A DNA stretch of 64,000 nt from assembly GCA_041661405.1 (NCBI GenBank), contig JBAZUL010000005.1:3164-67163 (forward strand), read 5' to 3'. Below, piece by piece: positions 25,934-59,605 of the stretch (within the stretch, counting starts at the first letter, position 1; every line of letters begins with the position of its first letter). Below the pieces are notes generated by a model, which saw only the letters and a program-made list of their open reading frames with translations, made no database searches and was not told the origin of the DNA. This DNA comes from Patescibacteria group bacterium (GTDB taxonomy: Bacteria > Patescibacteriota > Patescibacteriia > Patescibacteriales > JBAZCA01). Both the position numbers and the translations under genes were made by a program.

Positions 25934-26878
25934 TTAATTCATATTAACGCTCCCGGCCTTCCGTCCTTCAGCCATAAACCGGCAGACTTTCTCGCTCGTG
26001 GAAATAGCGACATCAACCTGCGCTTCTTCGGTTGAAGCGCCGATATGCGGGGTAAGAATTACGTTCGGCAATCCGGCGAGTTCGCATTCCATTTTTTCGT
26101 CATTGGTTTTTGGCTCGTTAGCGTAAACGTCAATTGCCGCTCCGGCGAGATGGCCGGATTTTAAGGCTTCTGCCAGAGCCATTAAATCAACAACGTTCCC
26201 GCGGGCGAGATTGATGATGTAGCTTCCCTTTTTCATCAACGCCAGTTTTTCGGCGTTAATAAGATTGGGTGCCGAGGCATGGAGCGATACGACGTCAGCG
26301 ACGGCCAGAAGCTCTTCCAGAGTCTTCATCTTTTTCGCGTTGCCCATCGGGAGTTTATCAAAAACGTCAAAGAATATAACTTTCATGCCGAGCGCTTCGG
26401 CTAAAACCGAAAGTTGGGAGCCGATGTTGCCGTAGCCCACTATGCCTAAAGTTTTTCCCCGGACTTCATAAGAACCTTTGGCTGATTTTTTCCAGTCTCC
26501 GGCGTGCATTTCCCGGTTGCGGTCGCCGATTTTTCGCAGTAAGGAAATAATCAGGCCAATACCTAGTTCGGCAACGCTTCGCGTTGAAGAAAAAGGCGCG
26601 TTAAAAACGCAGACTCCGGCTTTAGAGCAGGCCGCTAAATCAACCTTATTCAGTCCGATAACATACCCGCCAATGACTTTTAGACTATCGGCGGCGGACA
26701 AAATTTCTTCGTCAATTTCAGTCTTTGAGCGGATGCCGAGCGCGTCAACGCCCTTTATTTTTTCCTTTAACTCGTTCTTAGGCAAAGTGCCTTTGATTAA
26801 TTCCACTTCAAAATCGCGCTCTTCAAAATACTTTTTCGCGAGCTCGCTGATTCCTTCTAACAGTAGTACTTTTGGCAT
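25934..26878 (-). CDS. serA: D-3-phosphoglycerate dehydrogenase (short form, no ACT domain)
   Basis: 314 aa D-isomer 2-hydroxyacid dehydrogenase with NAD motif GIVGYGNIGSQ and catalytic region TPHIGASTEEAQ. Confidence 0.85.
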   Translation of the reverse strand: MPKVLLLEGISELAKKYFEERDFEVELIKGTLPKNELKEKIKGVDALGIRSKTEIDEEILSAADSLKVIGGYVIGLNKVDLAACSKAGVCVFNAPFSSTRSVAELGIGLIISLLRKIGDRNREMHAGDWKKSAKGSYEVRGKTLGIVGYGNIGSQLSVLAEALGMKVIFFDVFDKLPMGNAKKMKTLEELLAVADVVSLHASAPNLINAEKLALMKKGSYIINLARGNVVDLMALAEALKSGHLAGAAIDVYANEPKTNDEKMECELAGLPNVILTPHIGASTEEAQVDVAISTSEKVCRFMAEGRKAGSVNMN

Positions 26879-26993
26879 AGGTTTATGTTGATCTAATTAA
26901 TAACAAATTTGGAAACAGGAGAGGACGTTTCCATGCGAAGGCCAGGTGTAACAAAAGCCTTCTACAAAGAATCGTCCTCTCCGGGGCGCGGGG

Positions 26994-27203
26994 TCACTCA
27001 TCCCAGTTTTCATTATCTGGGAGATCGTTATCCCGCGCCTCCTCCTCCAGAGGAGGCGCTTTTTTCTCCTCAACGGTTCCCTCGGACGCCCGAGGAGATT
27101 TAGGCGCCCGAATTTCGGTCGGTGCATTCAAGCAGCGAATGCACCGACCGGTGTCCTGATTCAAGTGCCCGCCATCGCCTGACGGGCAAAAAATAAAAGA
27201 CAT
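26994..27203 (-). CDS. GC-rich small ORF A (69 aa), Cys/His N-terminal half and acidic tail
   Basis: The SD and start read GGGGAGGTGAGAGATG. First-position G periodicity suggests coding. It contains perfect 13-bp (27117-27129/27137-27149) and 10-bp (27035-27044/27050-27059) palindromes. GC is about 55 percent by hand count. Confidence 0.5.
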   Translation of the reverse strand: MSFIFCPSGDGGHLNQDTGRCIRCLNAPTEIRAPKSPRASEGTVEEKKAPPLEEEARDNDLPDNENWDE

Positions 27204-27335
27204 CTCTCACCTCCCCGGCGGCCCATCCTTGCGGCCGCCTTTTTGATTATTAATGCCACCGAACAAAAAACCAGAAACCAATTCTTATTGATTTCCACTT
27301 TCTTGTCCACTGCTATTTTTAAAAGGAACAAAATT
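27204..27335 (-). promoter_or_regulatory. leader of sORF A (paralogous to the leader of sORF B)
   Basis: Shares with 27633-27766 the AATTTTGTTCCTTT box, a 17-bp hairpin (27261-27277/27292-27308), TTAAYAA..AAAGGCG and a GC hairpin abutting the SD. Confidence 0.55.
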
Positions 27336-27419
27336 ATATAAATTCTGTTATTAGAATTGGAACCCGGAGACGTTCCTGAAAGATAGAACACATCTTCCAA
27401 AAGCTTCTCCGGGGCACCG

Positions 27420-27632
27420 CTATTCGTCAACGAGGCCGAGTACTTCGGCCACGGTCTCGCTGACCGTGGTTGGCCAGTAAACTATCAGAATAGCGGCCTC
27501 AACCGGCGTAAAAGCCGGCTGAATTTCTTCGTGACCCCGGTCATCCGGAACCACAATCCCCCCGATTTCCGGGGGTAAGGGGCGTGTTGTTCTCTGCCGG
27601 CACCCCTCGCCGGCGGACTCATTATTAAACAT
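27420..27632 (-). CDS. GC-rich small ORF B (70 aa)
   Basis: The SD and start read GGAAAGGAGAGGAGATG. It contains several perfect internal hairpins, for example CCACGGTCagcgaGACCGTGG. It may be coding or a structured RNA. Confidence 0.45.
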   Translation of the reverse strand: MFNNESAGEGCRQRTTRPLPPEIGGIVVPDDRGHEEIQPAFTPVEAAILIVYWPTTVSETVAEVLGLVDE

Positions 27633-27766
27633 CTCCTCTCCTTTCCGGCGCGCCCCTATCCGAGAGGGGGCAACGCCTTTGTTAATTCCAACGAACAGGA
27701 AACCGGAAACTAAACGCGTTTACTTTCCGCTTTCCTGTCCGCTGATCATTTTAAAGGAACAAAATT
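27633..27766 (-). promoter_or_regulatory. leader of sORF B (paralogous to the leader of sORF A)
   Basis: The hairpin at 27693-27709/27724-27740 aligns with that of leader A. It differs at four stem positions where G-C pairs in B replace A-U or G-U pairs in A, so pairing is kept. Confidence 0.55.
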
Positions 27767-27799
27767 ATTGAAAGGGATTAACGCAATCTAATCCATTTT

Positions 27800-28693
27800 T
27801 TATGTAAATAATCCCGTACTCAAATACTTCTCCCCTCTATCCGGAAAAATCGTTACTATGTTCCCTTTATCAATTTTTTCCGCAATTTTTAAGGTCGCGA
27901 GCATGGCGGCGCCGGACGACATGCCGACAAAAATCCCTTCTTCGGCAATAATTCTCCGCGCCATCCTAAAAGCCTCTTCCGTGTCAATCATAATAACATC
28001 GTCCAATTTTTCGCAGTCATAAATCTCCGGGACAATCGCCTCTTCCATGTTTTTTAATCCCTGGATGTAGTGCTCCTTAACCGGTTCAGCCGAAACGATT
28101 TTCACCGCCGGATTTTTCTTTTTTAAATAAGCGCCAATACCCATGAGCGTTCCCGACGTTCCGAGGGCGGCGGTAAAATAATCAATCTTCCCGCCCATGT
28201 CGCGCCAGATTTCCCGAGCCGTTGTTTCGTAATGGGCGATCTTATTATATTCGTTGCTAAACTGGTTCGGGTTAAAATATTTATCCGGATTTTCCGCCGC
28301 GAGCTCCCTTACTTTCATTATAGCTCCGTCCGTGCCTTTTGTCTTGTCAGTTAAAATTACTTCCGCGCCGAACGCTTTAATCATCTTAATCCGTTCCGGA
28401 GAAACCGCCGCGCTCATTACTATTTCAACCCTATAGCCGCGCGCCGCCCCAATCATGGCGAGCGCGATTCCGGTATTGCCGGAAGTCGCTTCAATAATAA
28501 TTTTTTCCTTATTAAGCTTCCCTTCTTTTTCTCCCTGTTCCAGCATTTTTAAGGCGATCCGGTCTTTTATGCTTCCGCCCGGATTAACACCCTCAATTTT
28601 AGCGTAAATATTCACGCCCTTTTTTTTATTCAGTTTATTGATTTTTACCATCGGCGTCCGGCCGATTGTATCAAGGATGTTGTTATAAATCAT
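27800..28693 (-). CDS. cysK: cysteine synthase (O-acetylserine/O-phosphoserine sulfhydrylase)
   Basis: 297 aa with PGGSIKDR (PLP lysine region), TSGNTGIALA and GTSGT motifs. Confidence 0.9.
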   Translation of the reverse strand: MIYNNILDTIGRTPMVKINKLNKKKGVNIYAKIEGVNPGGSIKDRIALKMLEQGEKEGKLNKEKIIIEATSGNTGIALAMIGAARGYRVEIVMSAAVSPERIKMIKAFGAEVILTDKTKGTDGAIMKVRELAAENPDKYFNPNQFSNEYNKIAHYETTAREIWRDMGGKIDYFTAALGTSGTLMGIGAYLKKKNPAVKIVSAEPVKEHYIQGLKNMEEAIVPEIYDCEKLDDVIMIDTEEAFRMARRIIAEEGIFVGMSSGAAMLATLKIAEKIDKGNIVTIFPDRGEKYLSTGLFT

Positions 28694-28875
28694 ACAAATA
28701 AAATCCGTCCCTTTTGAGGACGGTTTCTTTTTTACAGTCTGCTGTTCATGGGTTTTTTAACTTTCAGACTTAGACTTTTGACTTATGGGAAACCATCCTT
28801 AAAACCGGCTTGCTACCCGAGCCGCCGCATCCGCCTGAAAGAGACATTTTAAAGATGGTTATGTTCATAATTATA
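28694..28875 (-). promoter_or_regulatory. structured cysK leader of about 180 nt (candidate riboswitch or attenuator, class unknown)
   Basis: A 14-bp P1-like helix (28790-28803/28846-28859, one G-U) encloses a GC-rich core. An AAGTC word array follows, then hairpin CCGTCC..GGACGG (28705-28723) plus a U-run 11 nt before the ATG. Promoter-like TTGACA/TATAAT elements lie at about 28880-28915. Confidence 0.4.
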
Positions 28876-28961
28876 TGCTAAATAATTTTTACTCAACTGT
28901 CAATAGCGCCGAGCGCGAGAGAGAGGCGTCCCGTAGCCGCCCCGCATTTTGCGGGGCGGGA

Positions 28962-29600
28962 CTAGGCGCGCGGGGCTGCTTTGGTGATTGATCTGAACAA
29001 ACTATCAACCGTATAACCCTTTTCCATCTGCGCGTAATAATCAATGGTTATATCCGCGAGCTTTTCATAACGCCCGGTTCGGTATTTTAATAATTCCGGA
29101 TAGCATCTTTTTAAGGCTAAAACCGGGTCTTCGCCGGGATTAGCATTATACGACTTACCCCAAAGTATCGGTTTTGGATTGTCAAAATATTGTTTAATTT
29201 TTTTCTCAATCACCGTTTCCGGCGTATCAAAATAAATTATTTTGGTCAGCTTTTTCATCCTGGCTATCAATTTTTCAGCCAAATAAGCAACGCTTCCGGT
29301 CGTGTCAATTACAATATTTTCTCCTGCCCCGTTTTCAACGGCGTCCAGCGCTTTTTGCAGATTCTCCGCTTCCAATTCAAGATAACGACGGCTGTTCTCG
29401 GCGCATCTTCCATCATAAGGCTGTCCGAGCCAGCGGCTCATGTCTTTAATCCCCGAATAGCCGAGTTTTTTCAGTTCCGATTCCAGTCCGGCCTCAATCA
29501 TGTCATCAATACCGAACCTTTTAAATCCTTTTTCTTTTTCCAATTTTCCCGACCAGAACGATTTTCCGACTCCGGACATGCCGATTAAAGAGATAAACAT
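28962..29600 (-). CDS. shikimate-kinase-like P-loop kinase of unknown substrate (paralog of the aroK domain at 40964)
   Basis: From MFISLIGMSGVGKSFWSGKLEKEKGF (Walker A) through GIDDMIE and IDTTGSV, the layout is SKI-family. It is the last gene after thrC. The track start at 29651 adds 17 hydrophobic residues. Confidence 0.65.
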   Translation of the reverse strand: MFISLIGMSGVGKSFWSGKLEKEKGFKRFGIDDMIEAGLESELKKLGYSGIKDMSRWLGQPYDGRCAENSRRYLELEAENLQKALDAVENGAGENIVIDTTGSVAYLAEKLIARMKKLTKIIYFDTPETVIEKKIKQYFDNPKPILWGKSYNANPGEDPVLALKRCYPELLKYRTGRYEKLADITIDYYAQMEKGYTVDSLFRSITKAAPRA

Positions 29601-29675
29601 ATTTCTAAGCAAACAGTAAATAATAAACAGCGAACAGTATCTTTTAACCACTGCTTACTATTTACTGTTTATTGG

Positions 29676-30959
29676 TTACTGGTTGCTTAATAATATCTTT
29701 TTTACTTCCTCATAATCATTCTTAACGCAAATCTTTCTTTTCTCCAGCTTCGCTAAATTAGCAATCTCTTTAGAGTCGTCAACTTCAATGCCGGTGTGCT
29801 TTTTTATTACGTCAGCGAACTTTATTGGCGAGGCCGTGGAAAAAATAACTTTGGTATAATCATTAGAACCTTCTTTTTCCGCTCCGGCAAAAGCCACGGC
29901 CGTATGCGGATCAAGCAAGTATCCGTATTTTTCGTAAACTTTTTTTATTATAGCCGCTGTTTCCGCGTCTTCCACCCTTTCGGCTTTAATTACTTTGCGG
30001 AATTCTTCCGGGTCATTATTGAATACTTTTTGGATGCGGATAAAATTGCTCGGGTTGCCGATGTCCATGGCGTTGGAAAGGGTCGCGACCGTCGCCCGCG
30101 GTTTAAACTCTCCTGTCTCGTAATATTTTTTCGCCGCGTCATTAGCGTTGGTAACGGCTAAAAACCGGCTGAAAGGAAATCCCATTTCCCTAGCGAAAAC
30201 TCCGGCGCAAAGGTTGCCGTAATTGCCGCAAGGCACGACGAATTCCAGCTTCTGATCAGCCAGTTGGGAATAGACATAAGCGTAATAAACCATTTGCGGG
30301 AGGAGCCGGCCGACGCTTATGGAATTAGCCGCCGTAAGGTTTAATTCTGCTAAGTCCGGATCATTAAACGCCCGCTTAGCGAACGCCTGGCAGTCGTCAA
30401 AAACGCCTTCAATTTCTATTGTCGTTACATTCGGTTCTACGCGGGTTAACTGCTCTTCCTGCAGTTTGGAAACCATGCCTTTGGGATAAAGGATGATGAC
30501 TTTCACGTTCGGTACGCCGCCGAAGCCGTGCGCTACAGCGCCGCCCGTATCGCCCGAAGTCGCGACTAAAATCGTCGCGGTCCGGTTTTCTTTTAGAAGG
30601 ATCCGGCCCATGAACCGCGCGAGAACCCGCGCCGCCACGTCCTTAAACGCGAGCGTCGGACCATGGAACAGCTCAAGCACCTGGTAATCGCCGATCTTTT
30701 TCAAAGGCAGGGGAAAATTTAAAGCCTCAGCCATTATTTCCCGGAGTTCGGCTTCGCTAAAATCATCGCTAACCCATTTTAAAAGCGTTTTTGCCGCGGC
30801 TTCGGCCAAAGGCTTTCCTTTTAAATTTTCCAGCTCTTTTGCCGTTAATTTTGGAAAAAATTCGGGAAAATAAAGCCCCCCGTCCGGGGCGAGGCTTTTT
30901 AGCATGGCTTCCCGGAAGGTTGCTTTTGGCGATTTTCCGTTCAGGCTGTAAAAATTCAT
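29676..30959 (-). CDS. thrC: threonine synthase
   Basis: 427 aa. The N-terminus FREAMLKSLAPDGGLYFP, the PLP-lysine region FHGPTLAFKDVA and SGDTGGA fit the long ThrC class. Confidence 0.9.
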   Translation of the reverse strand: MNFYSLNGKSPKATFREAMLKSLAPDGGLYFPEFFPKLTAKELENLKGKPLAEAAAKTLLKWVSDDFSEAELREIMAEALNFPLPLKKIGDYQVLELFHGPTLAFKDVAARVLARFMGRILLKENRTATILVATSGDTGGAVAHGFGGVPNVKVIILYPKGMVSKLQEEQLTRVEPNVTTIEIEGVFDDCQAFAKRAFNDPDLAELNLTAANSISVGRLLPQMVYYAYVYSQLADQKLEFVVPCGNYGNLCAGVFAREMGFPFSRFLAVTNANDAAKKYYETGEFKPRATVATLSNAMDIGNPSNFIRIQKVFNNDPEEFRKVIKAERVEDAETAAIIKKVYEKYGYLLDPHTAVAFAGAEKEGSNDYTKVIFSTASPIKFADVIKKHTGIEVDDSKEIANLAKLEKRKICVKNDYEEVKKILLSNQ

Positions 30960-30974
30960 AAAATCCTAAAAAAT

Positions 30975-31020
30975 GCAAAAATACTAAATTTCGTATTTCG
31001 CATCTTTCGTATTTCGTAGA
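30975..31020 (-). repeat. ACGAAAT-word array in the thrC leader
   Basis: Plus-strand (A/C)TTTCG occurs at 30988, 30995, 31004 and 31011. Confidence 0.6.
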
Positions 31021-31021
31021 G

Positions 31022-31435
31022 TTATTTCTTCTCGTCTTTATTTAATTTATAATTAAAACTCTCAACGAGCGCGATCCAGCTGGCTTCTATAATATTTAAC
31101 GACACTCCGGCCGTTTCCCAACTGTCTTTTCCGTCGGTTGATTCAATCGCTACCCGGACTTTGGCCGCGGTGCCGTCGTTTGAAGGAAGCACCCGGACTT
31201 TGTAATCCGTCAGTTTCATCTTTTTTAAGCCCGGATAAACCCTTTCCAGAGACATTCTTAAAGCGTTATTTAAAGCGTCAACCGGCCCGACCCCGGCCGC
31301 CGTATTCCTTTCTTTATCAGCGCCAACTTTTATCCCGACCTCAGCCTCGGCCGTTGGTTCGCCCCAGTCCCGCTCTTTATGGACGCTCACCCGGTAATCC
31401 ATGAGCTCAAAGAATTTTTTTTCTTTGTTAGGCAT
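31022..31435 (-). CDS. stand-alone LeuA_dimer-type (IPMS/citramalate synthase C-terminal allosteric) domain protein
   Basis: The 137-aa sequence ...AEAEVGIKVG...AAGVGPVDALNNALR...LTDYKVRVLPSNDGTAAKVRVAIESTDGKDSWETAGVSLNIIEASWIALVESFNYKL closely matches the regulatory domain of CimA/LeuA. No catalytic barrel is present. Confidence 0.75.
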   Translation of the reverse strand: MPNKEKKFFELMDYRVSVHKERDWGEPTAEAEVGIKVGADKERNTAAGVGPVDALNNALRMSLERVYPGLKKMKLTDYKVRVLPSNDGTAAKVRVAIESTDGKDSWETAGVSLNIIEASWIALVESFNYKLNKDEKK

Positions 31436-31566
31436 ATTATTTAGAGTTATTATCCCCTTGTAATATTAATCTAGCACATACTCCTAAAAATTCAATCCTC
31501 AACCCTTAACTAATCCGTCTTCCAAATTTTCCCTGTCATGCCTATGGATAAGGTAAAAGTTGAGGA

Positions 31567-31610
31567 GAAGAGGAAGAGATCGGCTTTTTCGCGTCCGTCT
31601 CTTCCTCTTC
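31567..31610 (-). terminator. 13-bp perfect hairpin after sORF63 (terminator-like)
   Basis: GAAGAGGAAGAGA at 31567-31579 pairs with TCTCTTCCTCTTC at 31598-31610. Only a weak U-tract follows on the minus strand. Confidence 0.45.
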
Positions 31611-31629
31611 CCGGGAGGGGCGAGGGCGA

Positions 31630-31821
31630 CTAAAATCCGCCGCCCTCAACCCCGGCTTCCAAACAGATCGCGCGCGCGCCACCCAGTTGGGCGGCGACGT
31701 GCTTGTGGCCGCCACAAAGGCAAGCCACAACCTGCTTGGAAGGGGGTTTTCCCTCCCTTTCCAAGTGCTCCCGGAGGAGGCGAATTGCCTCCTCCAAGGA
31801 TGGTTTTTCTTTGGGGGTCAT
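31630..31821 (-). CDS. GC-rich small ORF (63 aa)
   Basis: The SD and start read GGGAAAGGAGGTGATAACATG. First-position G periodicity is visible. Internal perfect palindromes include a 9-bp one at 31773-31781/31787-31795. Confidence 0.5.
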   Translation of the reverse strand: MTPKEKPSLEEAIRLLREHLEREGKPPSKQVVACLCGGHKHVAAQLGGARAICLEAGVEGGGF

Positions 31822-31972
31822 GTTATCACCTCCTTTCCCCCGAATTTGAAAAAAACAATAAATCTCCTATACAACCCCAGCCTCTTCTAAACTTAATCTT
31901 GTCCTCCGTAGCCTTGGCAAAGGAGGAAAAGGCCAAAGTAATATCCGCGATTTTTTTGAAAGAACATTAAAC

Positions 31973-31999
31973 AAAAATACCGCCCCGGTTGCGGGCGGC
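31973..31999 (-). terminator. attenuator terminator of the Thr/Ile/Met-rich leader
   Basis: The minus strand reads GCCGCCCgcaaccgGGGCGGTATTTTTG. Its 5' arm (31989-31999) is perfectly complementary (11 bp) to 32055-32065 inside the leader ORF. Confidence 0.6.
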
Positions 32000-32027
32000 T
32001 TTCAACTTTTCTTCTAACTTTCAGCTT

Positions 32028-32138
32028 TTAACTTTGAACTTTTAACTTTGTTCTGCCGCCCGCAATTAAAACCCCGGTCATAATAATTCCGGTCATCATC
32101 ATAATGGTCTTAATTGTGGTGGCAATAAATTTCATCAT
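32028..32138 (-). CDS. 36-codon leader peptide rich in Thr, Ile and Met (alternative reading: small hydrophobic peptide)
   Basis: Own translation gives MMKFIATTIKTIMMMTGIIMTGVLIAGGRTKLKVQS. It is below the ORF-track size cutoff. It is preceded by TTGACA-17-TTAAAT, with the ATG 6 nt after the -10 (leaderless geometry). Confidence 0.5.
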   Translation of the reverse strand: MMKFIATTIKTIMMMTGIIMTGVLIAGGRTKLKVQS

Positions 32139-32144
32139 GCTTAT

Positions 32145-32173
32145 ATTTAATCAAACATAGCCAAGGCTGTCAA
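32145..32173 (-). promoter_or_regulatory. sigma70-like promoter for the Thr/Ile/Met leader
   Basis: On the minus strand, TTGACA (32173-32168), a 17-nt spacer and TTAAAT (32150-32145). Confidence 0.5.
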
Positions 32174-32219
32174 CAATGGCGGGCGTGGCTGACTTTCTTT
32201 CTTTGAGCTAAAATTAACT

Positions 32220-32450
32220 TTACTGTTTCAAGCTCCCCCGTTTTCCATAAGCTCTTATTGCCTCGTCTTTTTCTTCTTCAGTGGTTATTCCTTCATTTTT
32301 GCTTTCTTCATTAACCCGCTTTATCCCGCGAGCTTCCATGCACCCAGGATGCATGCAAGCCTCGGTACAGGTGAGCGCCTCTTCTTTTTTCCCAACTTCT
32401 CCAGTCATCGGTTGTTCTTCGCCGACAATCTCTTTTGGTTTCTCATTCAT
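32220..32450 (-). CDS. small ORF D (76 aa), Glu/Lys-rich with a CTEACMHPGC motif
   Basis: ORF with a TATAAT-containing upstream region. The Cys motif is encoded by an 11-bp near-palindrome, GCTTGCATGCA..TGCATGGAAGC. Confidence 0.4.
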   Translation of the reverse strand: MNEKPKEIVGEEQPMTGEVGKKEEALTCTEACMHPGCMEARGIKRVNEESKNEGITTEEEKDEAIRAYGKRGSLKQ

Positions 32451-32613
32451 ATAATTAGTTTATTATTAAATCCCTATCTTATTTTTGATTATAGCTAACA
32501 GCCGGACTTTTGAAAAGAGGCGCAAGAAAATCTCCCGCGCGGAATGGGAGAATGAATGGGATAAATGAACGCGTGCTTCAACTATCCATCCGCGCGGATT
32601 TGCCTTGCCAAGG

Positions 32614-32859
32614 CTATTTGGCTTTTTCCTCCTTGATAATTCCGAGTTCAAGATGACGAGCCCGATACATCTCACTTACCGGGTTCACCTCCTGCTCCCG
32701 GGCAGTCTTCGCCCGGTCGCAGTCCCTTTCCGAGTGCGCCCTCTCAAAGCGGCGCACCAGTTTTTCTTTTTCGGCCTGACTCAGCATATTGCCGAACTGG
32801 CCGATCTCCAGCCCGCACCTACTACAGCAGACTGGAACAAAAAAACTTATTGAAACCAT
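32614..32859 (-). CDS. GC-rich small ORF C (81 aa), with an N-terminal CCSRCG motif
   Basis: The SD and start read GGGGAGGAAGAGATG, preceded by a GC hairpin and a TTAACAA..AAACGGGCGG box homologous to the leaders of sORFs A and B. Confidence 0.5.
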   Translation of the reverse strand: MVSISFFVPVCCSRCGLEIGQFGNMLSQAEKEKLVRRFERAHSERDCDRAKTAREQEVNPVSEMYRARHLELGIIKEEKAK

Positions 32860-33094
32860 CTCTTCCTCCCCGGCAACCCTCTCACGGGCCGCCCGTTTGT
32901 TGTTAACAAATACTTTGCCCTCGCCAACTTTCTGATTTCTATCGCAACGATTCGCGCTTTAATTAGATCCTTCTCCCGAGGACTCGGGATCAGGATGACA
33001 AATAAAGGGAAACATAAATAGAAAGCATAAAGCTGGCAAGGACTATGCTGAATTTGAAAGAGCGGACTGATATATTAATTATACTTGATTAAAT

Positions 33095-33180
33095 CAGTAT
33101 TCCGCGACATTCGTGCCATTCGTTTCTATTCGCGCAAATTCGCTTGCCTCGGCTTGCCAAAGGCAAGACGGGTTAATTCG
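33095..33180. repeat. phased CGAAT-word array around a GC hairpin
   Basis: Plus-strand ATTCG occurs at 33109, 33118, 33128, 33138 and 33176 (spacing 9, 10 and 10 bp, then 38). The hairpin CTTGCCaaaGGCAAG lies between. Confidence 0.7.
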
Positions 33181-33189
33181 TGTATTTAC

Positions 33190-33220
33190 AAAAACCGTCT
33201 CCCCTTTTCCCTGAGACGGC
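33190..33220 (-). terminator. rho-independent terminator of the pheA-tyrA operon
   Basis: The minus strand reads CCGTCTCagggaaaagggGAGACGG followed by TTTTT. It begins 46 nt after the tyrA stop. Confidence 0.75.
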
Positions 33221-33265
33221 CTGCGTTGTAATTGGAATATATTATAAATAAAATATAACAATCTG

Positions 33266-34294
33266 TCAAGCCTGCCGCCGGTAAGACTCATTCATAATCG
33301 CCCGATAAACTTCCCTGATCAGTTGCTCGTCCAGCTTGAATTTTTTTATTTTGTCCTTAATTATTTCCTCTTCCCTTTTTTTATCAATAACCGGCAGGCC
33401 TTTTTTTCGCTTAATCCGGCCAATGGCTTTTACTTCGGCAAAGCGGTTGCCTAAAAGTCCGAATATCCGGTTGTCAATCTTATTAATCATCCCCCGCCGA
33501 AACCCGAGCTCGTCTTTCGCTCCGGCTTTCCTAATCCGGCTATCCATTAATTCGCAGGCAATCATGAACTTAGCGCGCACGGCAGAAGCGTAGGGATTAT
33601 AATTATGCATGTCGTAGAACAACTGCCAGTTGTCCGAAGTCGTATGCGGGAGGATAGAAAGAAGATCAGTATAGCCGGGAGTAAAAATTTTCTGTTCCCG
33701 CGCTCCGGCGCCGAGTAACGCCCGGCCGACAAAATGGACTAAGCCTAAAGTATAGGCGTTTTGGCGGTCATGATCTTCGGGAGTGGTAATAATAACTTCT
33801 AGTCCCAGGCCAGTTAAAAATTTTCTCGCCATGCTGAGCCGTCGGCTATCAATCCTTATTGGGCATAAGACAATCTGCAGTCCTTTCAATTTCCAGGCTT
33901 GTTTTAAAAAATTGAATTTTGTCGTTACCGGACCGAACTGCGGATGAGTTCCCATGATTAATACATTTTCAGGCAAATATTTCTTAAGCCAGCCGCAAGG
34001 ATAAACTTTAACTGAACAGGTATCAACGATCAAAGCGCCCGGCTTTACGTCTGGCGCGATTTTTTTTATCACCTTTTCGGTCTGCGATATGGGGACAGCG
34101 AGAATTATTAAATCGCAGGCGGCCGCTTCTTTTAAGCTTACTATTCCAGCGCTGATTTTTTTCGCTTTAGCAATATCATCTTTGGAAAACCCGCTGTCAT
34201 AAACCTTAACCTGAGCCTTTCCGGAAAAAACGCTCGCGGCCAACTTTCCAAAACGGCCGAATCCGATAATAGCGACTGTTTTCTTACCGGTCAT
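33266..34294 (-). CDS. tyrA: prephenate dehydrogenase with C-terminal chorismate mutase (AroQ) domain
   Basis: The N-terminus VAIIGFGRFGK is a Rossmann motif within a PDH core. The C-terminal 90 aa (RRGMINKIDNRIFGLLGNRFAEVKAIGRIKRKKGLPVIDKKREEEI) fit the AroQ CM helix pattern. Confidence 0.85.
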   Translation of the reverse strand: MTGKKTVAIIGFGRFGKLAASVFSGKAQVKVYDSGFSKDDIAKAKKISAGIVSLKEAAACDLIILAVPISQTEKVIKKIAPDVKPGALIVDTCSVKVYPCGWLKKYLPENVLIMGTHPQFGPVTTKFNFLKQAWKLKGLQIVLCPIRIDSRRLSMARKFLTGLGLEVIITTPEDHDRQNAYTLGLVHFVGRALLGAGAREQKIFTPGYTDLLSILPHTTSDNWQLFYDMHNYNPYASAVRAKFMIACELMDSRIRKAGAKDELGFRRGMINKIDNRIFGLLGNRFAEVKAIGRIKRKKGLPVIDKKREEEIIKDKIKKFKLDEQLIREVYRAIMNESYRRQA

Positions 34295-35184: not shown

Positions 35185-35979
35185 ATGCCAAGCAAAAAAG
35201 CACTACTGTCAAAAATCATTAACCCGCTATCCGGACGGACGGTTATTGTTCCCATGGATCACGGCGTTACCGACGGACCGATTCCGGGTCTCTTAAAAAT
35301 GGATGAGACCATTAAAAGGGTAAAGGAAGGCGGCGCTGACGCGATTATTATTCATAAAGGCATTTTTAAATTATATAAAGAAGTAATCGGCGATCTCCCG
35401 GCTCTGATCCATATTTCAGCCTCAACCGGCATGGGCGTTTCTTTAAAAAAAGTTTTAGTCGCGACCGCCAAAGAAGTTAAAAATTTAGGCGCGGCCGGAG
35501 TTTCGGTGCATCTAAATATCGGCAACCAATACGAGCCGGAAATGCTTCGCGATCTGGGGATAGTGGCGCGCGAATGCGAAGAAGAGGGTTTACCCCTGCT
35601 CGCCATGATGTACCCGAGAAACATTATTGACGGAAAAATCATCAATTATAACGACGCGGAAAAGGTCGGCCACGCCGCCCGCTTAGCCGCCGAACTGGGT
35701 GCTGATATAGTCAAAGTCCCTTACACCGGCGACGCTAAAAGTTTCGGCGAAGTGGTTCGCGGCTGTCCCATACCGGTTGTAATCGCCGGCGGAGCCAAAG
35801 GATCGGAAGAGGCAATGCTTTCTTCAATCCGGGATTGCGTCCTTGCCGGAGCGGCCGGAGTTTCAGTCGGCCGAAATGTTTTCCAATCCGAAGACGTTTC
35901 CGGCATGGTTAAAAAAGTCCGGGAAGCGGTATATGACGCCGCGGCTGTATCAGCCAACGCTAAAACATCGCGTAATTAA
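35185..35979 (+). CDS. 2-amino-3,7-dideoxy-D-threo-hept-6-ulosonate (ADH) synthase, archaeal-type AroA' (class I aldolase/DhnA family)
   Basis: 264 aa. VIVPMDHGVTDGP, IIHKG, LLAMMYPR, AARLAAELGADIVKVPYTGD, PVVIAGG and GAAGVSVGRNVFQ closely follow my recollection of M. jannaschii MJ0400. It is adjacent to aroB'. Confidence 0.8.
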   Translation: MPSKKALLSKIINPLSGRTVIVPMDHGVTDGPIPGLLKMDETIKRVKEGGADAIIIHKGIFKLYKEVIGDLPALIHISASTGMGVSLKKVLVATAKEVKNLGAAGVSVHLNIGNQYEPEMLRDLGIVARECEEEGLPLLAMMYPRNIIDGKIINYNDAEKVGHAARLAAELGADIVKVPYTGDAKSFGEVVRGCPIPVVIAGGAKGSEEAMLSSIRDCVLAGAAGVSVGRNVFQSEDVSGMVKKVREAVYDAAAVSANAKTSRN

Positions 35980-35992
35980 AATTTAAATTTTT

Positions 35993-37003
35993 ATGTCTAA
36001 AACATTCTGGTATCAGCCCCCGGTCTGGGATAAAAAACTGGTTACCGCGGCCATTGAATCGGGCTTTTCAGCAATCTACGTCCGGCCGGAAGACATAGCC
36101 CGGACTAAAGAGCTGTCTTTAGCCAAAGTCATTTCAACCGTCGCGCCAGCTGATTTTATTATCGGCGAGAATGTTGACGAAGTGATTATTAAAAACAAGG
36201 AATCAGAAAACAGGGCTGTCGCGCATCAGGGGAAAATCCCGGTTATCATCCGCAATGTTGACTGGACCATTATCCCTTTGGAAAATCTCATCTCAAAAAC
36301 TTCCAACCTGATCCAGCATGTCCGGAGTTGTGATGAAGCAAAACTGGCTTTTGAAACTCTGGAAACCGGCTGTGACGGCATACTGCTTGAAACCAGCGAC
36401 TTGAATGAAATAAAAAAAACCGCCGGCCTGATAAAAGACGCCCAAAACGAAAAGTTAAAACTTATCCAGGCTGAAATTACTTCCATAGAACAGCTCGGAT
36501 TGGGCGACCGGGTCGTTGTTGATACTTCTTCTATATTATTTCCCGGCCAGGGCATGCTTATCGGCGACTCTTCCAAAAGTATGTTTTTAGTATATAATGA
36601 AAACGTGGAGACTCCCTACTGCGATCCGCGGCCTTTCCGGGTAAACGCCGGCGGCGCCCACGCCTATATCCGCCTGCCCGGCGACAAAACCAAATATCTT
36701 GGGGAATTAAAAAGCGGCCTGAAAGCCCTTACCGTTGACCGGGAAGGCAATACCGAAGAAGTTATCATCGGCCGGGTAAAGATTGAAAAACGCCCCATGC
36801 TCATTGTCCGGGCCAAAGCCGGAGAACGGGACATGAGCCTTGTCATGCAGAACGCCGAAACCATCCGCCTAACCGGAATTGACGGACAGCCGATTTCAGT
36901 TACTAAATTAAAACCGGGCGACCGGGTGCTCGCCTTCCTGCAGGAAGAAGGCGTCGGAAGGCATTTCGGACAAAAAATTAAAGAGACAATCACTGAGAGG
37001 TAA
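35993..37003 (+). CDS. 3-dehydroquinate synthase II, archaeal-type AroB'
   Basis: 336 aa. The N-terminal W...KK.VTAAIESG pattern and the RPFRVNAGGAHAY motif are characteristic of the DHQS-II (MJ1249-like) family. Confidence 0.85.
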   Translation: MSKTFWYQPPVWDKKLVTAAIESGFSAIYVRPEDIARTKELSLAKVISTVAPADFIIGENVDEVIIKNKESENRAVAHQGKIPVIIRNVDWTIIPLENLISKTSNLIQHVRSCDEAKLAFETLETGCDGILLETSDLNEIKKTAGLIKDAQNEKLKLIQAEITSIEQLGLGDRVVVDTSSILFPGQGMLIGDSSKSMFLVYNENVETPYCDPRPFRVNAGGAHAYIRLPGDKTKYLGELKSGLKALTVDREGNTEEVIIGRVKIEKRPMLIVRAKAGERDMSLVMQNAETIRLTGIDGQPISVTKLKPGDRVLAFLQEEGVGRHFGQKIKETITER

Positions 37004-37026
37004 TACAATTTTTTTCAATAATACAT

Positions 37027-37055
37027 CGCCGCCGTTTGCTTGCTAAACGGCGGCG
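37027..37055 (+). other. perfect 11-bp GC hairpin between aroB' and ask
   Basis: CGCCGCCGTTT (37027-37037) pairs with AAACGGCGGCG (37045-37055). No U-tract follows, so a terminator role is doubtful. Confidence 0.4.
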
Positions 37056-37099
37056 AAAATGATAACTTGGAAAAATAACAGCTTCTAATTCCGTCATAT

Positions 37100-38488
37100 A
37101 TGGCAAAAAACGGAAAAATCATCGTTAATAAATTCGGCGGCGGGATCATGATTGAAAAGCATATCCCCTTTACCGATGAAAGATTAAGAGAGCAGATTAA
37201 AGCTGGCTTCCGGCCTGTTGTTGTCGTTTCGGCTTTAAAAGGCGTCACCGACCGGATCATCCATTTCCTCGCCGGACTGAAACAGGAAGTCTGCCGCAAT
37301 CAGCAAATCGGCGGCAATACCGACAAATATTCCCGCCGGCTGGTAAGCCCTTTTGTCGCCGAATTAAAGGAAGAGCATCTTAGACTTCTGGAACAAGTCG
37401 GAGTCTTAAGGGAAGAGCGGAAAAAAGCCATGGCCGACATGGATAAAATTTTCTTCCGGCTGGAAAATGATTTAAACGCCCTCCTTCATTTCGGATTCTT
37501 AAATGTTTTTGATGATAAGATCTCGGCCTATGGCGAAAAGCTGGCCGGGGTTTTTTTTACCGCCTATCTTAATTCCAAAGGCTTTACGGCCCGGACGATC
37601 ATGGCCGAAGACATTCCGATCATGACCGACGATTGTTTCCGCGACGCTAATATTGATTACAAAGTTTCGGAGAAAAACGCGAGAAAAAAAATCCTGAAAA
37701 CCGAAGGCATCCCGGTCATCCCTGGCTTTACCGGAAAAACCGCCAACGGGAATATAACAACGCTCGGCCGCGGCGGAACCGATACGACCGCCTGCTTTTT
37801 GGGAGCGGCCTTGAGGGCCGACAAGGTGATTCTTTGGAAAGACGTGGACGGCGTATTGTCCGCCGACCCGAAAATCGTTCCCTCCGCCAAAACCGTCCCT
37901 TTTATCAGCTACGCCGAAGCTGAAGAATCCGGTAAAGTCATCCATGATAAAGCTATCCAATATATAAAAATGTTTAAAACTCCGGCCGAAGTGGCGGCCA
38001 TTTCCGATCCAACGAAAAAAACTCTGGTCGGTCCGGCTAAAGATAAAAAGGAAGGCCCGAAAATCGTCAGCTTTAAAAAAGGGCTCTCGCTTCTCATTAT
38101 CACCGACGAAAAAATGAACCAACGCGGCTACCTCGCCCATGTTGCCGGGCTCCTGGCCGCCCGTAGAATAAACCTGGACACGATCAGGAATACCCGCGAT
38201 AAACTACATATTGTCGCCGAAAGCTATAACGGACCGATTGAGGAGGCGATAAAAGATTTAAAAGAAGAAATCGCCAAACTAAAAATCATTCCGGTAAATA
38301 TGGTTATTTTGATCGGCAGTCTTGACTGGAAAATGGTCAACCGCTTTAACGACGTATTAATAAAACTCTGTCCGGACGCGGAACTCGGCGCTTTTCCCTA
38401 CCGGAATTGCGTCCGGCTGGAAGCCATAGTCCGAGCCGAAGACACGGAAAAAATGGTTCGGGCTTTGCATGAGGAATTTATAAAATAA
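37100..38488 (+). CDS. ask: aspartate kinase
   Basis: 462 aa. VNKFGGGIM is a KFGG motif, GRGGTDTTA is present, and there are C-terminal ACT-like repeats. Confidence 0.9.
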   Translation: MAKNGKIIVNKFGGGIMIEKHIPFTDERLREQIKAGFRPVVVVSALKGVTDRIIHFLAGLKQEVCRNQQIGGNTDKYSRRLVSPFVAELKEEHLRLLEQVGVLREERKKAMADMDKIFFRLENDLNALLHFGFLNVFDDKISAYGEKLAGVFFTAYLNSKGFTARTIMAEDIPIMTDDCFRDANIDYKVSEKNARKKILKTEGIPVIPGFTGKTANGNITTLGRGGTDTTACFLGAALRADKVILWKDVDGVLSADPKIVPSAKTVPFISYAEAEESGKVIHDKAIQYIKMFKTPAEVAAISDPTKKTLVGPAKDKKEGPKIVSFKKGLSLLIITDEKMNQRGYLAHVAGLLAARRINLDTIRNTRDKLHIVAESYNGPIEEAIKDLKEEIAKLKIIPVNMVILIGSLDWKMVNRFNDVLIKLCPDAELGAFPYRNCVRLEAIVRAEDTEKMVRALHEEFIK

Positions 38489-38494
38489 AATTTT

Positions 38495-39583
38495 ATGAAA
38501 AAATTCAGAGTCGGCATTCTCGGCGCCACCGGCATGGTCGGCCAAAATTACATAAGACTGCTTAATGGCCACCCTTGGTTTAAAGTTACCTACGTCGCGG
38601 CATCAGCCAATTCGGCCGGAGTAACTTATTTTGATTCCATAATCGGCCGCTGGCAAATGGCGACCGCCGTCCCCAAAGATGTAAGATCTTTGGTTGTCCA
38701 GGATGTCGCTAATATTAAAGAAGCGAAAAAGCATTGCGACTTTGTTTTTTCGGCTTTTGAGATGCCGGACAAAAGCCTGGTTAAGGAAATGGAGGAAAAA
38801 TACGCGGCCGCGGGAATTCCTGTTGTGTCAAACGCCTCGGCCAACCGGTTTACCGATGACGTGCCGATGCTCATCCCGGAAATAAACCCCCATCACATAG
38901 ACATCATCCCGGTTCAGAAAAAAAACCGCGGCTGGAAAAAAGGCTTTATTGTTGTCAAACCCAACTGCAGTCTTCAAAGCTATATTACTCCGGTTTTTGC
39001 CCTCATACAGGCGGGATATCCGGTTGAAAAAATATTTATCACCACCCTGCAGGCAGTATCCGGCGCCGGCTATCCGGGCGTTCCGTCGCTTGACATGATT
39101 GGTAATGTCGTGCCTTTCATTCCGGGCGAAGAAGAAAAGACTGAAGAAGAGCCGCTAAAAATCCTTGGGGAAATAAAAGACGGAATATTCCAAAAAGCCG
39201 CCTCGCCGGCGATTTCCGCCCATTGCAACCGGGTGCCGGTGATTGACGGACATTTAGCCTGCGTCAGCCTGAAATTCGCGGAAAAAAAACCGGCTCGGGA
39301 AAAAATCCTTAAAGTCTGGAAAGAATTCAGAGCCCTGCCGCAGACCTTGAAACTGCCCATGGCGCCGGAACAGCCGATCCTCTACCGCAACGAGCATAAC
39401 CGCCCCCAGCCGAGAAAAGACCGCGACCGGGAAAAAGGCATGGCCGTTACTGTTGGGCGGCTCCGGGAATGTAAAATCTTTGATTACAAATTCGCCGCCT
39501 TAAGCCATAATACGGTTCGCGGCGCCGCCGGCGGAGGAATATTAAACGCGGAACTCTTGGTAAAGAAAGGATACATAAAATGA
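38495..39583 (+). CDS. asd: aspartate-semialdehyde dehydrogenase
   Basis: 362 aa. VGILGATGMVGQ and the active-site region KPNCSLQ are present, with a C-terminal HNTVRGAAG. Confidence 0.9.
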   Translation: MKKFRVGILGATGMVGQNYIRLLNGHPWFKVTYVAASANSAGVTYFDSIIGRWQMATAVPKDVRSLVVQDVANIKEAKKHCDFVFSAFEMPDKSLVKEMEEKYAAAGIPVVSNASANRFTDDVPMLIPEINPHHIDIIPVQKKNRGWKKGFIVVKPNCSLQSYITPVFALIQAGYPVEKIFITTLQAVSGAGYPGVPSLDMIGNVVPFIPGEEEKTEEEPLKILGEIKDGIFQKAASPAISAHCNRVPVIDGHLACVSLKFAEKKPAREKILKVWKEFRALPQTLKLPMAPEQPILYRNEHNRPQPRKDRDREKGMAVTVGRLRECKIFDYKFAALSHNTVRGAAGGGILNAELLVKKGYIK

Positions 39584-39668: not shown

Positions 39669-40967
39669 ATGTGTTCTTACCAAGTCCATATTTTAAAACG
39701 TCCAATAAAAAAAATAATAACTCTGCCCGGTTCCAAGAGTTTTACCAACCGCGCTCTCATCATGGCCGCATTGGCGGACGGGCGTTCCGCGCTAACTGGC
39801 GCCTCTCTATCGGATGACAGCCGGGCAATGATTTCTGCTTTGAAAAAGATTGGAATTAGAATTACCAATTCCGGAAAAAATATTACGGTTTACGGAGAAG
39901 GCGGCCGATTCCGGTTATTCAACGGAAAAATAAATGTTGGCGCGGCCGGAACCGCCGCCCGTTTTCTTCTCTCATTATGCGCCCTGGTTCCCGGAGAAAT
40001 TATTCTTGACGGCTCGGAGCGGATGAGGCAAAGGCCGATTAACGAACTGGTGAGCGCCCTGCGTAAAATCGGAGCAAAGATCCAGTACCAAAAAAAGGCC
40101 GGTTGTCTGCCGGTTAAAATCAGGGGCGAAAACTTAACCGGCAGAAAAGTAAAAATGCCGGGAAAAATATCAAGCCAATTTTTAACTTCCCTTCTTTTAA
40201 TCTCCCCGTTTTTAAAAAACGGGATTGAAATAAGCGTAATCGGCAGACAAATTTCCCGATCATACATTGATATGACTTTAGCCGGTTTAATGGAGCATGG
40301 AATTAAAGTAAAAAACCATAATTATAAAAAATACGAGATTAAGCCGGGCGCCCGCTATAAACCGGGAAAATACGAAATTGAAAGCGACGCTTCAGGCGCG
40401 AGTTATTTTTTCGCTTTAGCCGCTTTAACCGGCTCCGCGATCCGGGTAAAAAATATCTCTCCTGATTCATCCCAGGGCGACGTAAAATTCTGCGACTTGC
40501 TCCGAAGAATGGGATGCGAAGTTAAAAAAAACGCGCGCCAAAAATGGATTGAAGTCCGGGGGAAAAAACAATTGCGCGCTATAACCGCGGACATGGAAAA
40601 TATGCCGGACACGGCGCAGACTCTCGCCGTTGTCGCCGCCTTTGCCAAAGGTAAAACCAAAATCACCAGACTCTCCACGTTAAGGCACAAAGAAACCGAC
40701 CGGCTAATAGCTTTGAAAACCGAACTTTCTAAAATGGGCATAAAATCGCAAACCACGAAGGATTCCATAGTTATAGCAGGCGGCCAGCCGCGCGGAGCGA
40801 AAATTAAAACCTACGATGATCACCGCATGGCCATGGCTTTCGCCGTTGCCGGAGCGCGGATTCCGGATGTAATCATTGAAAACCCGGGCGTTGTTTCAAA
40901 GTCGTTTCCGGAGTTTTGGAAAATGCTGAAGAAGGCGGGCGTTAAAATAACCAATAAAAACAAATGA
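39669..40967 (+). CDS. aroA: 3-phosphoshikimate 1-carboxyvinyltransferase (EPSP synthase)
   Basis: 432 aa. LPGSKSFTNRALIMAAL, the LGNAGTA-like VGAAGTAARF, and the RHKETDR and DHRMAMAF motifs are present. Confidence 0.95.
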   Translation: MCSYQVHILKRPIKKIITLPGSKSFTNRALIMAALADGRSALTGASLSDDSRAMISALKKIGIRITNSGKNITVYGEGGRFRLFNGKINVGAAGTAARFLLSLCALVPGEIILDGSERMRQRPINELVSALRKIGAKIQYQKKAGCLPVKIRGENLTGRKVKMPGKISSQFLTSLLLISPFLKNGIEISVIGRQISRSYIDMTLAGLMEHGIKVKNHNYKKYEIKPGARYKPGKYEIESDASGASYFFALAALTGSAIRVKNISPDSSQGDVKFCDLLRRMGCEVKKNARQKWIEVRGKKQLRAITADMENMPDTAQTLAVVAAFAKGKTKITRLSTLRHKETDRLIALKTELSKMGIKSQTTKDSIVIAGGQPRGAKIKTYDDHRMAMAFAVAGARIPDVIIENPGVVSKSFPEFWKMLKKAGVKITNKNK

Positions 40968-51776: not shown

Positions 51777-52172
51777 CTATCCGGACAAGCTCTGTTCCGC
51801 GATCTCGGCTACTGTTTCTATTTCAATCATAGCGCCTTTGGGAAGACCAGCGACCTGGATCGTAACCCGAGCCGGATAAGGCTCGGAAAAATATTCCCCG
51901 TAAATTTCGTTCGCTTTAGCAAAATCATTAAGGTCAATTAAGTACATAGTGGAACGAACCACGGCGCCAAAATCCAAACCAACTTCGGCCAAAATAGCTT
52001 TTATGTTTTCCAAAACCTGCCGGGCTTCGGCCTCAATTCCGCCGGAAACCATCTCGCCGTCCGGCCGCAAAGGAATCTGGCCGGAAATAAATAACAGGTT
52101 CCCGGTTCTTACAGCCTGGGAATAAGGGCCGATAGCTTTTGGAGCGTTTGATGTAGTAATTACTTGTTTCAT
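51777..52172 (-). CDS. ridA: RidA family reactive enamine/imine deaminase
   Basis: 131 aa. APKAIGPYSQAV, GQIP and ARV..QVA.LPKGA.IEIE match the YjgF/RidA pattern. Confidence 0.9.
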   Translation of the reverse strand: MKQVITTSNAPKAIGPYSQAVRTGNLLFISGQIPLRPDGEMVSGGIEAEARQVLENIKAILAEVGLDFGAVVRSTMYLIDLNDFAKANEIYGEYFSEPYPARVTIQVAGLPKGAMIEIETVAEIAEQSLSG

Positions 52173-52173
52173 A

Positions 52174-53223: not shown

Positions 53224-53265
53224 AATTTTTAATCTTAATTGATTAAACTTTATAAAAAACTAATA

Positions 53266-54975: not shown

Positions 54976-55032
54976 AAATTTCTCATAACTCGTAACGCGT
55001 AGCTCATAACAAATAAATTAACTTTCCGCGCT

Positions 55033-56652: not shown

Positions 56653-56656
56653 AATT

Positions 56657-57556: not shown

Positions 57557-57557
57557 A

Positions 57558-59408: not shown

Positions 59409-59442
59409 AAAAATGGCTGTTAGTTTTTAATTTATCCCTTCT

Positions 59443-59470
59443 ATAAAAAATACCACCTATGTTGGTGGCA
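59443..59470 (-). terminator. attenuator terminator of the Ile/Leu/Val leader
   Basis: The minus strand reads GCCACCaacataGGTGGT followed by ATTTTTTAT. Upstream GTGGCAGTTT can pair with AAACTGCCAC (10 bp) to sequester the 5' arm. Confidence 0.6.
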
Positions 59471-59504
59471 GTTTTTTCTTTTTTGTTCAATCGTGAAACT
59501 GCCA

Positions 59505-59570: not shown

Positions 59571-59576
59571 GTGTAT

Positions 59577-59605
59577 ATTCTAAATCTTTCCCATAAAGGT
59601 GTCAA
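59577..59605 (-). promoter_or_regulatory. sigma70-like promoter for the ILV leader (leaderless geometry)
   Basis: On the minus strand, TTGACA (59605-59600), a 17-nt spacer and TAGAAT (59582-59577). The leader ATG is 6 nt downstream. Confidence 0.55.

Follow-up and report, generated by a model that had tools for sequence, protein, structure and literature searches.

A threonine operon of Patescibacteria with a shikimate-kinase-fold enzyme as probable substitute for ThrB and a stand-alone LeuA_dimer gene at its head

How is a threonine synthase supplied with O-phosphohomoserine where no gene for ThrB, the homoserine kinase of the GHMP family, is at hand, and what does a regulatory domain without an enzyme do in front of thrC? 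Both questions are raised by a 64,000-nucleotide (nt) stretch of contig JBAZUL010000005.1 (assembly GCA_041661405.1, positions 3,164 to 67,163, forward strand) from a Patescibacteria group bacterium. We refer to this whole stretch as the window and number all positions within it unless another locus is named. Three co-oriented minus-strand genes run from 31435 to 28962 and encode, in order, a 137-amino-acid (aa) protein that we call R, threonine synthase (ThrC), and a P-loop kinase; the open reading frames (ORFs) of R, thrC, and the kinase confirm the three-gene operon proposed in a first-pass annotation of the window. We read R-thrC-kinase as a thr operon whose ThrB has very probably given way to an enzyme of the shikimate-kinase fold. 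This kind of replacement is already known, but the kinase family is new and widespread, and the stand-alone LeuA_dimer gene is unprecedented. The features of the operon are as follows:

31022..31435, minus strand: R, stand-alone LeuA_dimer (citramalate synthase-type regulatory) domain protein, 137 aa (PF08502, TIGR00977)
29676..30959, minus strand: thrC, threonine synthase, 427 aa, E. coli-type (TIGR00260; Pfam Thr_synth_N, PALP, and THR4_C)
28962..29600, minus strand: P-loop kinase of the shikimate-kinase fold, 212 aa, putative homoserine kinase (family alignments, NF040667, AlphaFold2 model)
31468..31495, minus strand: promoter-like site 5′ of R, with TTGAAT at 31495..31490, a 16-nt spacer, and TGcTAGATT (−10 hexamer at 31473..31468, extended −10 type), read directly from the sequence
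28937..28959, minus strand: GC-rich hairpin CCGCCCCGC-AAAAT-GCGGGGCGG directly 3′ of the kinase stop codon, without a U-tract, read directly from the sequence

The 427-aa ORF is, to judge from its sequence, a bona fide threonine synthase. In particular, it scores 261 bits against TIGR00260 (cut-off 167) and aligns with E. coli ThrC at 37% identity over 432 columns (residues 1–428, E = 3.5e-91). A tblastn search with E. coli ThrB found no GHMP-type thrB within the 64-kb window (best E = 0.098), as the first-pass annotation had reported. The window ThrC lacks an in-frame, 25- to 31-aa, Arg/Gly/Pro-rich insertion that is present in ThrC of two related metagenome loci, L081 (3031-3122) and L085 (8609-9967). 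L085 also carries a 38-nt palindromic insertion at ~7947-7984, in the leader of its R gene, and these insertions together suggest that small insertion elements are active in the clade.

The kinase is the candidate for the missing step. Its mechanically called ORF, 29651..28962, opens at a GTG at 29651; in the family alignments every homologue begins at the Met at 29600 (MxIxLIGMSGxGKS), so this is probably the true start, and it yields a protein of 212 aa. Exactly this 212-aa sequence is found in a database under the name 'AAA family ATPase [Patescibacteria group bacterium]'. Pfam returns only generic P-loop models (AAA_33, 33 bits) and no SKI match at E ≤ 0.01 (PF01202), the shikimate kinase model PRK13947 scores 18 bits against a cut-off of 204, and no GHMP match appears in Pfam or NCBIfam scans, so that the protein does not belong with ThrB.

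The fold of the kinase emerges from its predicted structure. An AlphaFold2 model built with 80 homologues has a pLDDT of 93.3 and a pTM of 0.89, and a Foldseek search of the PDB with this model returns shikimate kinases as its top 23 matches (E from 4.5e-7; 15–20% identity; TM-score 0.62–0.75, normalised to the target), with no solved structure found that is closer. The model places the kinase in the shikimate-kinase fold (nucleoside monophosphate kinase-like P-loop), in agreement with the first-pass annotation. The kinase shares with AroK/AroL (PF01202) this predicted fold, the Walker A motif, and the Asp of the D-x-D region, but differs in its low identity, its lack of an SKI match, and the absence of the FRxxE Arg and of GGG. 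The latter two are the shikimate-binding motifs seen in shikimate kinase structures, and the family alignments show YLxxE and TGS in their place. The genuine AroK of the window is the N-terminal domain of an AroK-AroE fusion in the aro operon (40964-42301; Pfam SKI 143 bits); it keeps FRSLE and GGG and shares 28% identity with the kinase across 149 residues, which bears out the earlier claim that the two are distinct.

The kinase belongs to a large family. Searching a single genome for each GTDB species turned up at least 486 stretches that encode relatives, in species representatives of many phyla, which by their organism labels include Patescibacteria, Desulfobacterota, Acidobacteriota, Bdellovibrionota, SAR324, Chloroflexota, Planctomycetota, Woesearchaeota, and others. 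The alignments give a mean column identity of 46–47% and conserved motifs of the family's own: W57-x-G-x-P61, T-G-S, P-K-P-x-x-W, and R-C-Y-P-x-L-L-x-x-R.

We surveyed the gene neighbourhoods of the best 80 of these at least 486 loci within a 6-kb range, using tblastn and clustering and annotation of flanking ORFs. Same-strand neighbours of the kinase were:

thrC: 27 of 80 loci
hom (homoserine dehydrogenase): 17 of 80 loci
aspartate kinase or a ThrA-type fusion: 18 of 80 loci
asd: 12 of 80 loci
thrS: 5 of 80 loci

At least one of thrC, hom, aspartate kinase/thrA, and asd lies beside the kinase in 34 of the 80 loci. These genes often overlap or abut the kinase at their stop and start codons, typically in the order thrA-asd-kinase-thrC, and tblastn found a GHMP thrB in none of the 80. 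Because same-strand threonine-pathway neighbours recur and a GHMP thrB accompanies none of the kinases, the kinase appears by position to take the place of thrB in the thr operons of phyla that are not related to each other.

A validated precedent for such an enzyme exists. DvMF_0971 of Desulfovibrio vulgaris Miyazaki F carried the annotation of a shikimate kinase; threonine prototrophy was shown to depend on it, and it restores an E. coli mutant lacking thrB. The same study anticipated further homoserine kinases still to be found (Price et al. 2018; PMC5764234). This kind of homoserine kinase is modelled by NF040667 (hom_kin_desulfo), which is the best NCBIfam match of the window kinase (42 bits, E = 6e-11) and the best or only NCBIfam match for all 30 family members tested. 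Both are P-loop kinases of the shikimate-kinase lineage that occur alongside a genuine AroK and in place of a GHMP ThrB. They differ in that the NF040667 model has 163 positions, whereas members of the window family have ~205–215 aa and their own motifs, occur in many phyla, and often lie within thr operons. The family thus compares as a distinct, longer sister family of the Desulfovibrio homoserine kinase, uncaptured by the curated models queried and unnamed, with the relationship to DvMF_0971 resting on an NCBIfam profile rather than a tree. The principle of a shikimate-kinase-like homoserine kinase is already known; it is this family that lacks a name. A literature search for homoserine kinase in Patescibacteria found no paper.

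Based on the conserved gene neighbourhood and the relatedness to a validated shikimate-kinase-like homoserine kinase, the window kinase is very probably a homoserine kinase. The first-pass proposal of a non-orthologous homoserine kinase is in this respect strongly supported, although its principle is not new. Several observations weigh on the other side. No threonine-pathway neighbour was seen in 46 of the 80 loci; scores against NF040667 range from 32 to 55 bits across the 30 members, far below the cut-off of 197; and the window kinase, ~45 residues longer and scoring well under that cut-off, does not compare as an orthologue of the validated enzyme. In addition, no homoserine dehydrogenase gene was found within the 64-kb window, and we infer the homoserine kinase activity of the family from gene neighbourhood and profile.

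The kinase might instead act on a different substrate, for instance shikimate, which would make it an additional AroK, or threonine, serine, or a nucleotide, with the homoserine kinase encoded elsewhere. The shikimate-kinase fold, weak Pfam SKI/AroK matches in some family members, and the 46 loci without a threonine-pathway neighbour would fit such a role. We consider it improbable: the shikimate-binding Arg and GGG are lost family-wide but kept in the true AroK of the window, the position X in thrA-asd-X-thrC recurs in unrelated phyla without a GHMP thrB, and the nearest curated family is a validated homoserine kinase (PMC5764234).

In our model, the kinase would stand in for the GHMP enzyme ThrB and convert L-homoserine to O-phospho-L-homoserine, using a shikimate-kinase fold with a rebuilt substrate site (YLxxE and TGS), and ThrC would convert O-phospho-L-homoserine to threonine. 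R, thrC, and the kinase would form one transcription unit covering the last two steps of threonine synthesis. The genes are separated by 62 nt (R-thrC) and 75 nt (thrC-kinase). The hairpin at 28937..28959 is a possible operon end, to judge from its position; a terminator scan made no call for it.

Of the earlier steps, aspartate kinase and asd are present in the window, inside the aro operon. In this aromatic operon (35185-39583, plus strand), a DeoC-type aldolase and DHQS-II come first, ahead of aspartate kinase and asd, and its gene content indicates an aspartate-semialdehyde-dependent (DKFP) route to dehydroquinate. The two genes lie there because the aromatic pathway, so read, uses the aspartate-semialdehyde-dependent route, and they seem to serve aromatic and threonine synthesis alike.

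What, then, is R? The protein scores 85.6 bits against Pfam LeuA_dimer (PF08502; gathering cut-off 24.9), covering profile positions 17–130 of 131. Against TIGR00977 (citramalate synthase) it scores 146 bits over positions 389–522 of 526 only, below the full-length cut-off of 450, and it reaches at most 38 bits against isopropylmalate synthase models. By these matches R corresponds exactly to the regulatory domain of a CimA-type enzyme and to nothing else, as the first-pass annotation had recognised in calling it an allosteric domain only. A phmmer search of the PDB with R found nothing; a profile of R domains matches 3f6g/3f6h, the regulatory domain of Leptospira citramalate synthase (LiCMS), with E = 8e-11. 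R and the CimA regulatory domain (C-terminus of TIGR00977) are the same full-length domain, 50–60% identical and with the core kept. CimA, however, has a catalytic TIM-barrel and a linker subdomain, both absent from R, which is a separate gene heading a thrC operon; and a conserved E-H-T motif of CimA reads E-R-N in R of all four lineages described below.

The relatives of R point to its origin. A metagenome scan returned 80 related loci, in which the only stand-alone R genes are those of L087 (94% identity), L088 (88%), and L089 (96%); in all three, thrC follows R, and the kinase comes next where the contig reaches. Relatives at ≤ 57% identity fall into three classes: cimA genes encoding 523–560 aa with an HMGL domain, ORFs running off a contig end, and split cimA. 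Where the gene is complete on its contig, these relatives are full-length cimA, the sole exception being L147, in which cimA is split by a frame break. With the C-termini of full-length cimA as its nearest relatives, R arose from a cimA gene whose catalytic part was lost when a narrow Patescibacteria clade originated, in its ancestor. No decayed catalytic domain was found upstream of R in the four lineages by tblastn with five full-length CimA proteins (none below E = 0.1).

The R-thrC-kinase arrangement is present in four distinct lineages: the window, L081, L085 (identical to L088), and L087. R is absent from all 80 of the other kinase loci. The stand-alone R gene is thus confined to one narrow clade and is not a general part of such thr operons. 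An exhaustive representative search with R gave a mix of 528-aa CimA proteins and fragments. We rejected the idea of a broad stand-alone LeuA_dimer family, as the short database matches that we inspected come from full-length cimA genes split by frameshifts or cut off at contig ends; two candidates, P0124 and P0177, were discarded as pieces of frameshift-split full-length cimA. The exact R sequence is itself absent from the protein collection searched; annotators or gene callers may have skipped R or flagged it as a partial gene.

A domain left over from a larger gene may be a remnant, and the first-pass annotation had offered the surviving 3′ end of a cimA gene as one of its readings. The cimA origin stands; the idea of a surviving scrap does not. 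In particular, the ratio of non-synonymous to synonymous substitution rates (dN/dS) of R is 0.035–0.108 in all six pairs of the four lineages, values that are approximate as the synonymous distance is near saturation but whose asymmetry is plain: between the window and L085, ~61 synonymous and 21 non-synonymous differences occur over 136 codons. The corresponding ratios are 0.09–0.11 for thrC, 0.08 for cysK, and 0.18 for the kinase, so that R is as low or lower. R also keeps 41 of 47 core positions, including GxGPVDALNNAL, where core positions are those with at least 85% conservation among the regulatory domains of 28 full-length CimA proteins. These data indicate a maintained gene under purifying selection rather than a decaying one. 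Nor is the ORF degenerate in relatives, an outcome that the first-pass annotation had allowed for: it is intact in four lineages with a common start, MPxKEKKFFELMDY. The exception, which counts against maintenance, is L089, a 1285-bp metagenome contig (its ThrC part 100% identical to that of the window) with a one-base frameshift in the R ORF (178-587); this may be an assembly error or a real disrupted allele.

The sequence upstream of R is also conserved. A block of ~45 nt 5′ of R is almost invariant across the four lineages, while synonymous sites within the R ORF differ by 28–67% and the sequence flanking the block has diverged as well. The block is promoter-like, its function being inferred from the sequence. 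Taken together, the low dN/dS, the retained core residues, the match of the profile to 3f6g/3f6h, and the conserved upstream block suggest that R is probably expressed, as the first gene of the operon. The R-thrC spacer (30960-31021, minus strand), which contains a short direct repeat, CGAAATACGAAA / GCGAAATACGAAAT, varies in length, with 62 nt in the window, 193 nt in L081 and L085, and 34 nt in L087.

It could still be supposed that R has no function and is simply what a deleted cimA left behind, an ORF that survived by chance: R does derive from cimA, its stand-alone form is limited to a narrow clade, the L089 copy is frameshifted, and the protein collection contains no exact match. The selection data nearly exclude this, and we give it very little credence; dN/dS is low in six of six pairs, with 61 synonymous against 21 non-synonymous differences between the window and L085, and the intact ORF, common start, conserved upstream block, and 41 of 47 core positions all stand against survival by chance.

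If R is maintained, what might it regulate? The regulatory domain of LeuA and CimA dimerises and binds the end-product inhibitor, which for Leptospira CimA is isoleucine. By analogy, the simplest expectation, offered tentatively, is a free R dimer that still binds a branched-chain amino acid. In our model, R would have persisted as a separate first gene of the operon after the catalytic part of cimA was lost, would most likely still dimerise and bind a branched-chain amino acid (isoleucine, by analogy with CimA), and would probably act as a small sensing subunit, with ThrC as its most likely partner. A parallel is offered by IlvN/IlvH, small, separately encoded subunits that confer feedback control on a catalytic partner. 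Like R as proposed here, these ACT-domain proteins of acetolactate synthase are small separate amino-acid-binding domains serving feedback control; their fold family differs from that of R, and the ligand and partner of R are proposals.

The choice of ThrC as partner draws on a second gene of the window:

57558-59408, minus strand: 616-aa ThrC-type pyridoxal phosphate (PLP) enzyme with a C-terminal LeuA_dimer domain (PRK08197 311 bits, TIGR00260 249 bits, PF08502 80 bits)
51777-52172, minus strand: a stretch of the leu/ilv operon that contains the fusion gene

The fusion gene lies between leuB and ilvE in a leuA-leuCD-leuB-X-ilvE-ilvD-ilvB-ilvC-ridA operon (51777-64000, minus strand) in which neither ilvA nor cimA was found, and a Gracilibacteria homologue also precedes ilvE-ilvB-ilvN. 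The architecture occurs in > 120 protein clusters at ≥ 51% identity from Patescibacteria, Gracilibacteria, Peregrinibacteria, NC10, and others. All of these ~615-aa proteins are annotated merely as 'threonine synthase', and a literature search for the fusion found no paper. Its ThrC part is of the PRK08197 type with a Zn-ribbon N-terminus, and its residues 443–475 match the LeuA region that precedes the regulatory domain. From its domains and setting, the fusion may be a feedback-regulated source of 2-oxobutyrate for isoleucine synthesis.

As with R and ThrC, the fusion associates a LeuA_dimer domain with a ThrC-fold PLP enzyme in the same genome; in the fusion, however, the domains are covalently joined and encoded in the leu/ilv operon, whereas R is separate and encoded in the thrC operon. 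Because the fusion gives a precedent in the same genome, the adjacent ThrC is, tentatively and by analogy, the most likely partner of R. A role as regulatory subunit, which the first-pass annotation had proposed in the form of a detachable feedback-sensing subunit, is plausible on an indirect basis: purifying selection, the kept core motif, adjacency to thrC, and the ThrC-LeuA_dimer fusion. Five points weigh against it. R lacks HCS_D2, the linker subdomain that in LeuA and CimA separates the catalytic domain from the regulatory one; the fusion keeps the LeuA-type region at residues 443–475 that R does not have; the fused ThrC belongs to another subfamily (PRK08197 type) than the adjacent ThrC; the regulatory domain of the fusion is only 31% identical to R; and the absence of R from the 80 other kinase loci marks it as dispensable for such operons.

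Two other partners can be envisaged. R might be the regulatory half of a split citramalate synthase that binds a catalytic-only CimA in trans, its adjacency to thrC being a historical accident. Its 50–60% identity to ordinary CimA regulatory domains, with 41 of 47 conserved positions kept, would suit this role, as would a leu/ilv operon without an obvious cimA or ilvA, a view limited to 64 kb. We regard it as unlikely: neither the window nor the flanking sequences of the four lineages revealed a catalytic-only HMGL-type gene, R lacks the subdomain that couples the regulatory to the catalytic domains in CimA and LeuA, and in four lineages R is preceded by a conserved promoter-like site of its own and invariably heads thrC-kinase. 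Alternatively, R might form mixed dimers with other LeuA_dimer enzymes, either the ThrC-LeuA_dimer fusion or LeuA, and so tune branched-chain feedback. LeuA_dimer domains act as dimers, as established for LeuA and CimA (PDB 3f6g/3f6h), and two more such domains are encoded in the window, but R is only 31% and 27% identical to those of the fusion and LeuA, respectively, and genomic linkage is lacking, R being always with thrC-kinase; the chance that R acts in this way seems very small.

Gene identities, kinase fold, family distribution and neighbourhoods, R origin, and purifying selection on R are shown by this analysis. As a whole, the best explanation, that the kinase is a homoserine kinase and R a retained, cimA-derived sensing subunit with ThrC as its likeliest partner, is one that we consider reasonably probable. 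A bolder extension, rather unlikely in our estimate, is that LeuA_dimer was recruited twice as an allosteric module of ThrC-fold enzymes: in cis in the fusion, perhaps an isoleucine-controlled source of 2-oxobutyrate, and in trans as R, which would then be the first free-standing LeuA_dimer regulatory subunit.

The surroundings of the operon show further features. Downstream, a promoter-like TTGACA-17-TAGCAT (28903..28875, minus strand) lies ahead of cysK, and a terminator-like hairpin with a T-tract (28723..28705, minus strand) ends a few bases 5′ of the cysK start codon. By its layout, the region 28694-28936 (minus strand) upstream of cysK could be a leader or attenuator; it has no match in Rfam, and an Rfam scan of 26850-33300 at gathering thresholds and at E ≤ 1 gave nothing credible. 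On the other side of the operon, the region 31436-33265 ('island 2') contains minus-strand small ORFs with good ribosome-binding sites at 31821..31630 (63 aa), 32450..32220 (76 aa), and 32859..32614 (81 aa), as well as a ~36-aa hydrophobic peptide starting near 32137 that is followed by a strong terminator hairpin at 31999..31979. These ORFs and the peptide have no Pfam or Rfam match, and the region is conserved in L081 only in patches (81% over 209 nt). The window is even in composition (GC 0.36–0.51 per kb) and, for Patescibacteria, unusually rich in amino-acid biosynthesis genes: serA-serC-HAD, cysK, thrC, tyrA/pheA, the full shikimate pathway, and ilv/leu.

When amino-acid biosynthesis is reconstructed, few steps appear to be missing as often as homoserine kinase. 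The GapMind survey assigned this step low confidence in 20% of 148 prototrophs, and ThrB was among the commonest gaps in prototrophs (PMC7311316). Members of the family described here are currently labelled 'AAA family ATPase', 'hypothetical protein', or 'shikimate kinase'. Naming the family would close the thrB gap in hundreds of species of Patescibacteria, Acidobacteriota, Bdellovibrionota, Desulfobacterota, Chloroflexota, SAR324, and DPANN archaea, and would thereby correct false predictions of threonine auxotrophy, including those for candidate-phyla bacteria usually presumed to depend on a host for amino acids. The practical value of the finding is thus one of annotation; conceptually, it is of interest because an allosteric module may have been put to new use in trans. 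The stand-alone R and the ThrC-LeuA_dimer fusion offer a tractable case of allosteric modules cut loose and reused; if the proposed recruitment is true, R would put threonine synthesis, through ThrC and/or the homoserine kinase, under feedback by branched-chain amino acids.

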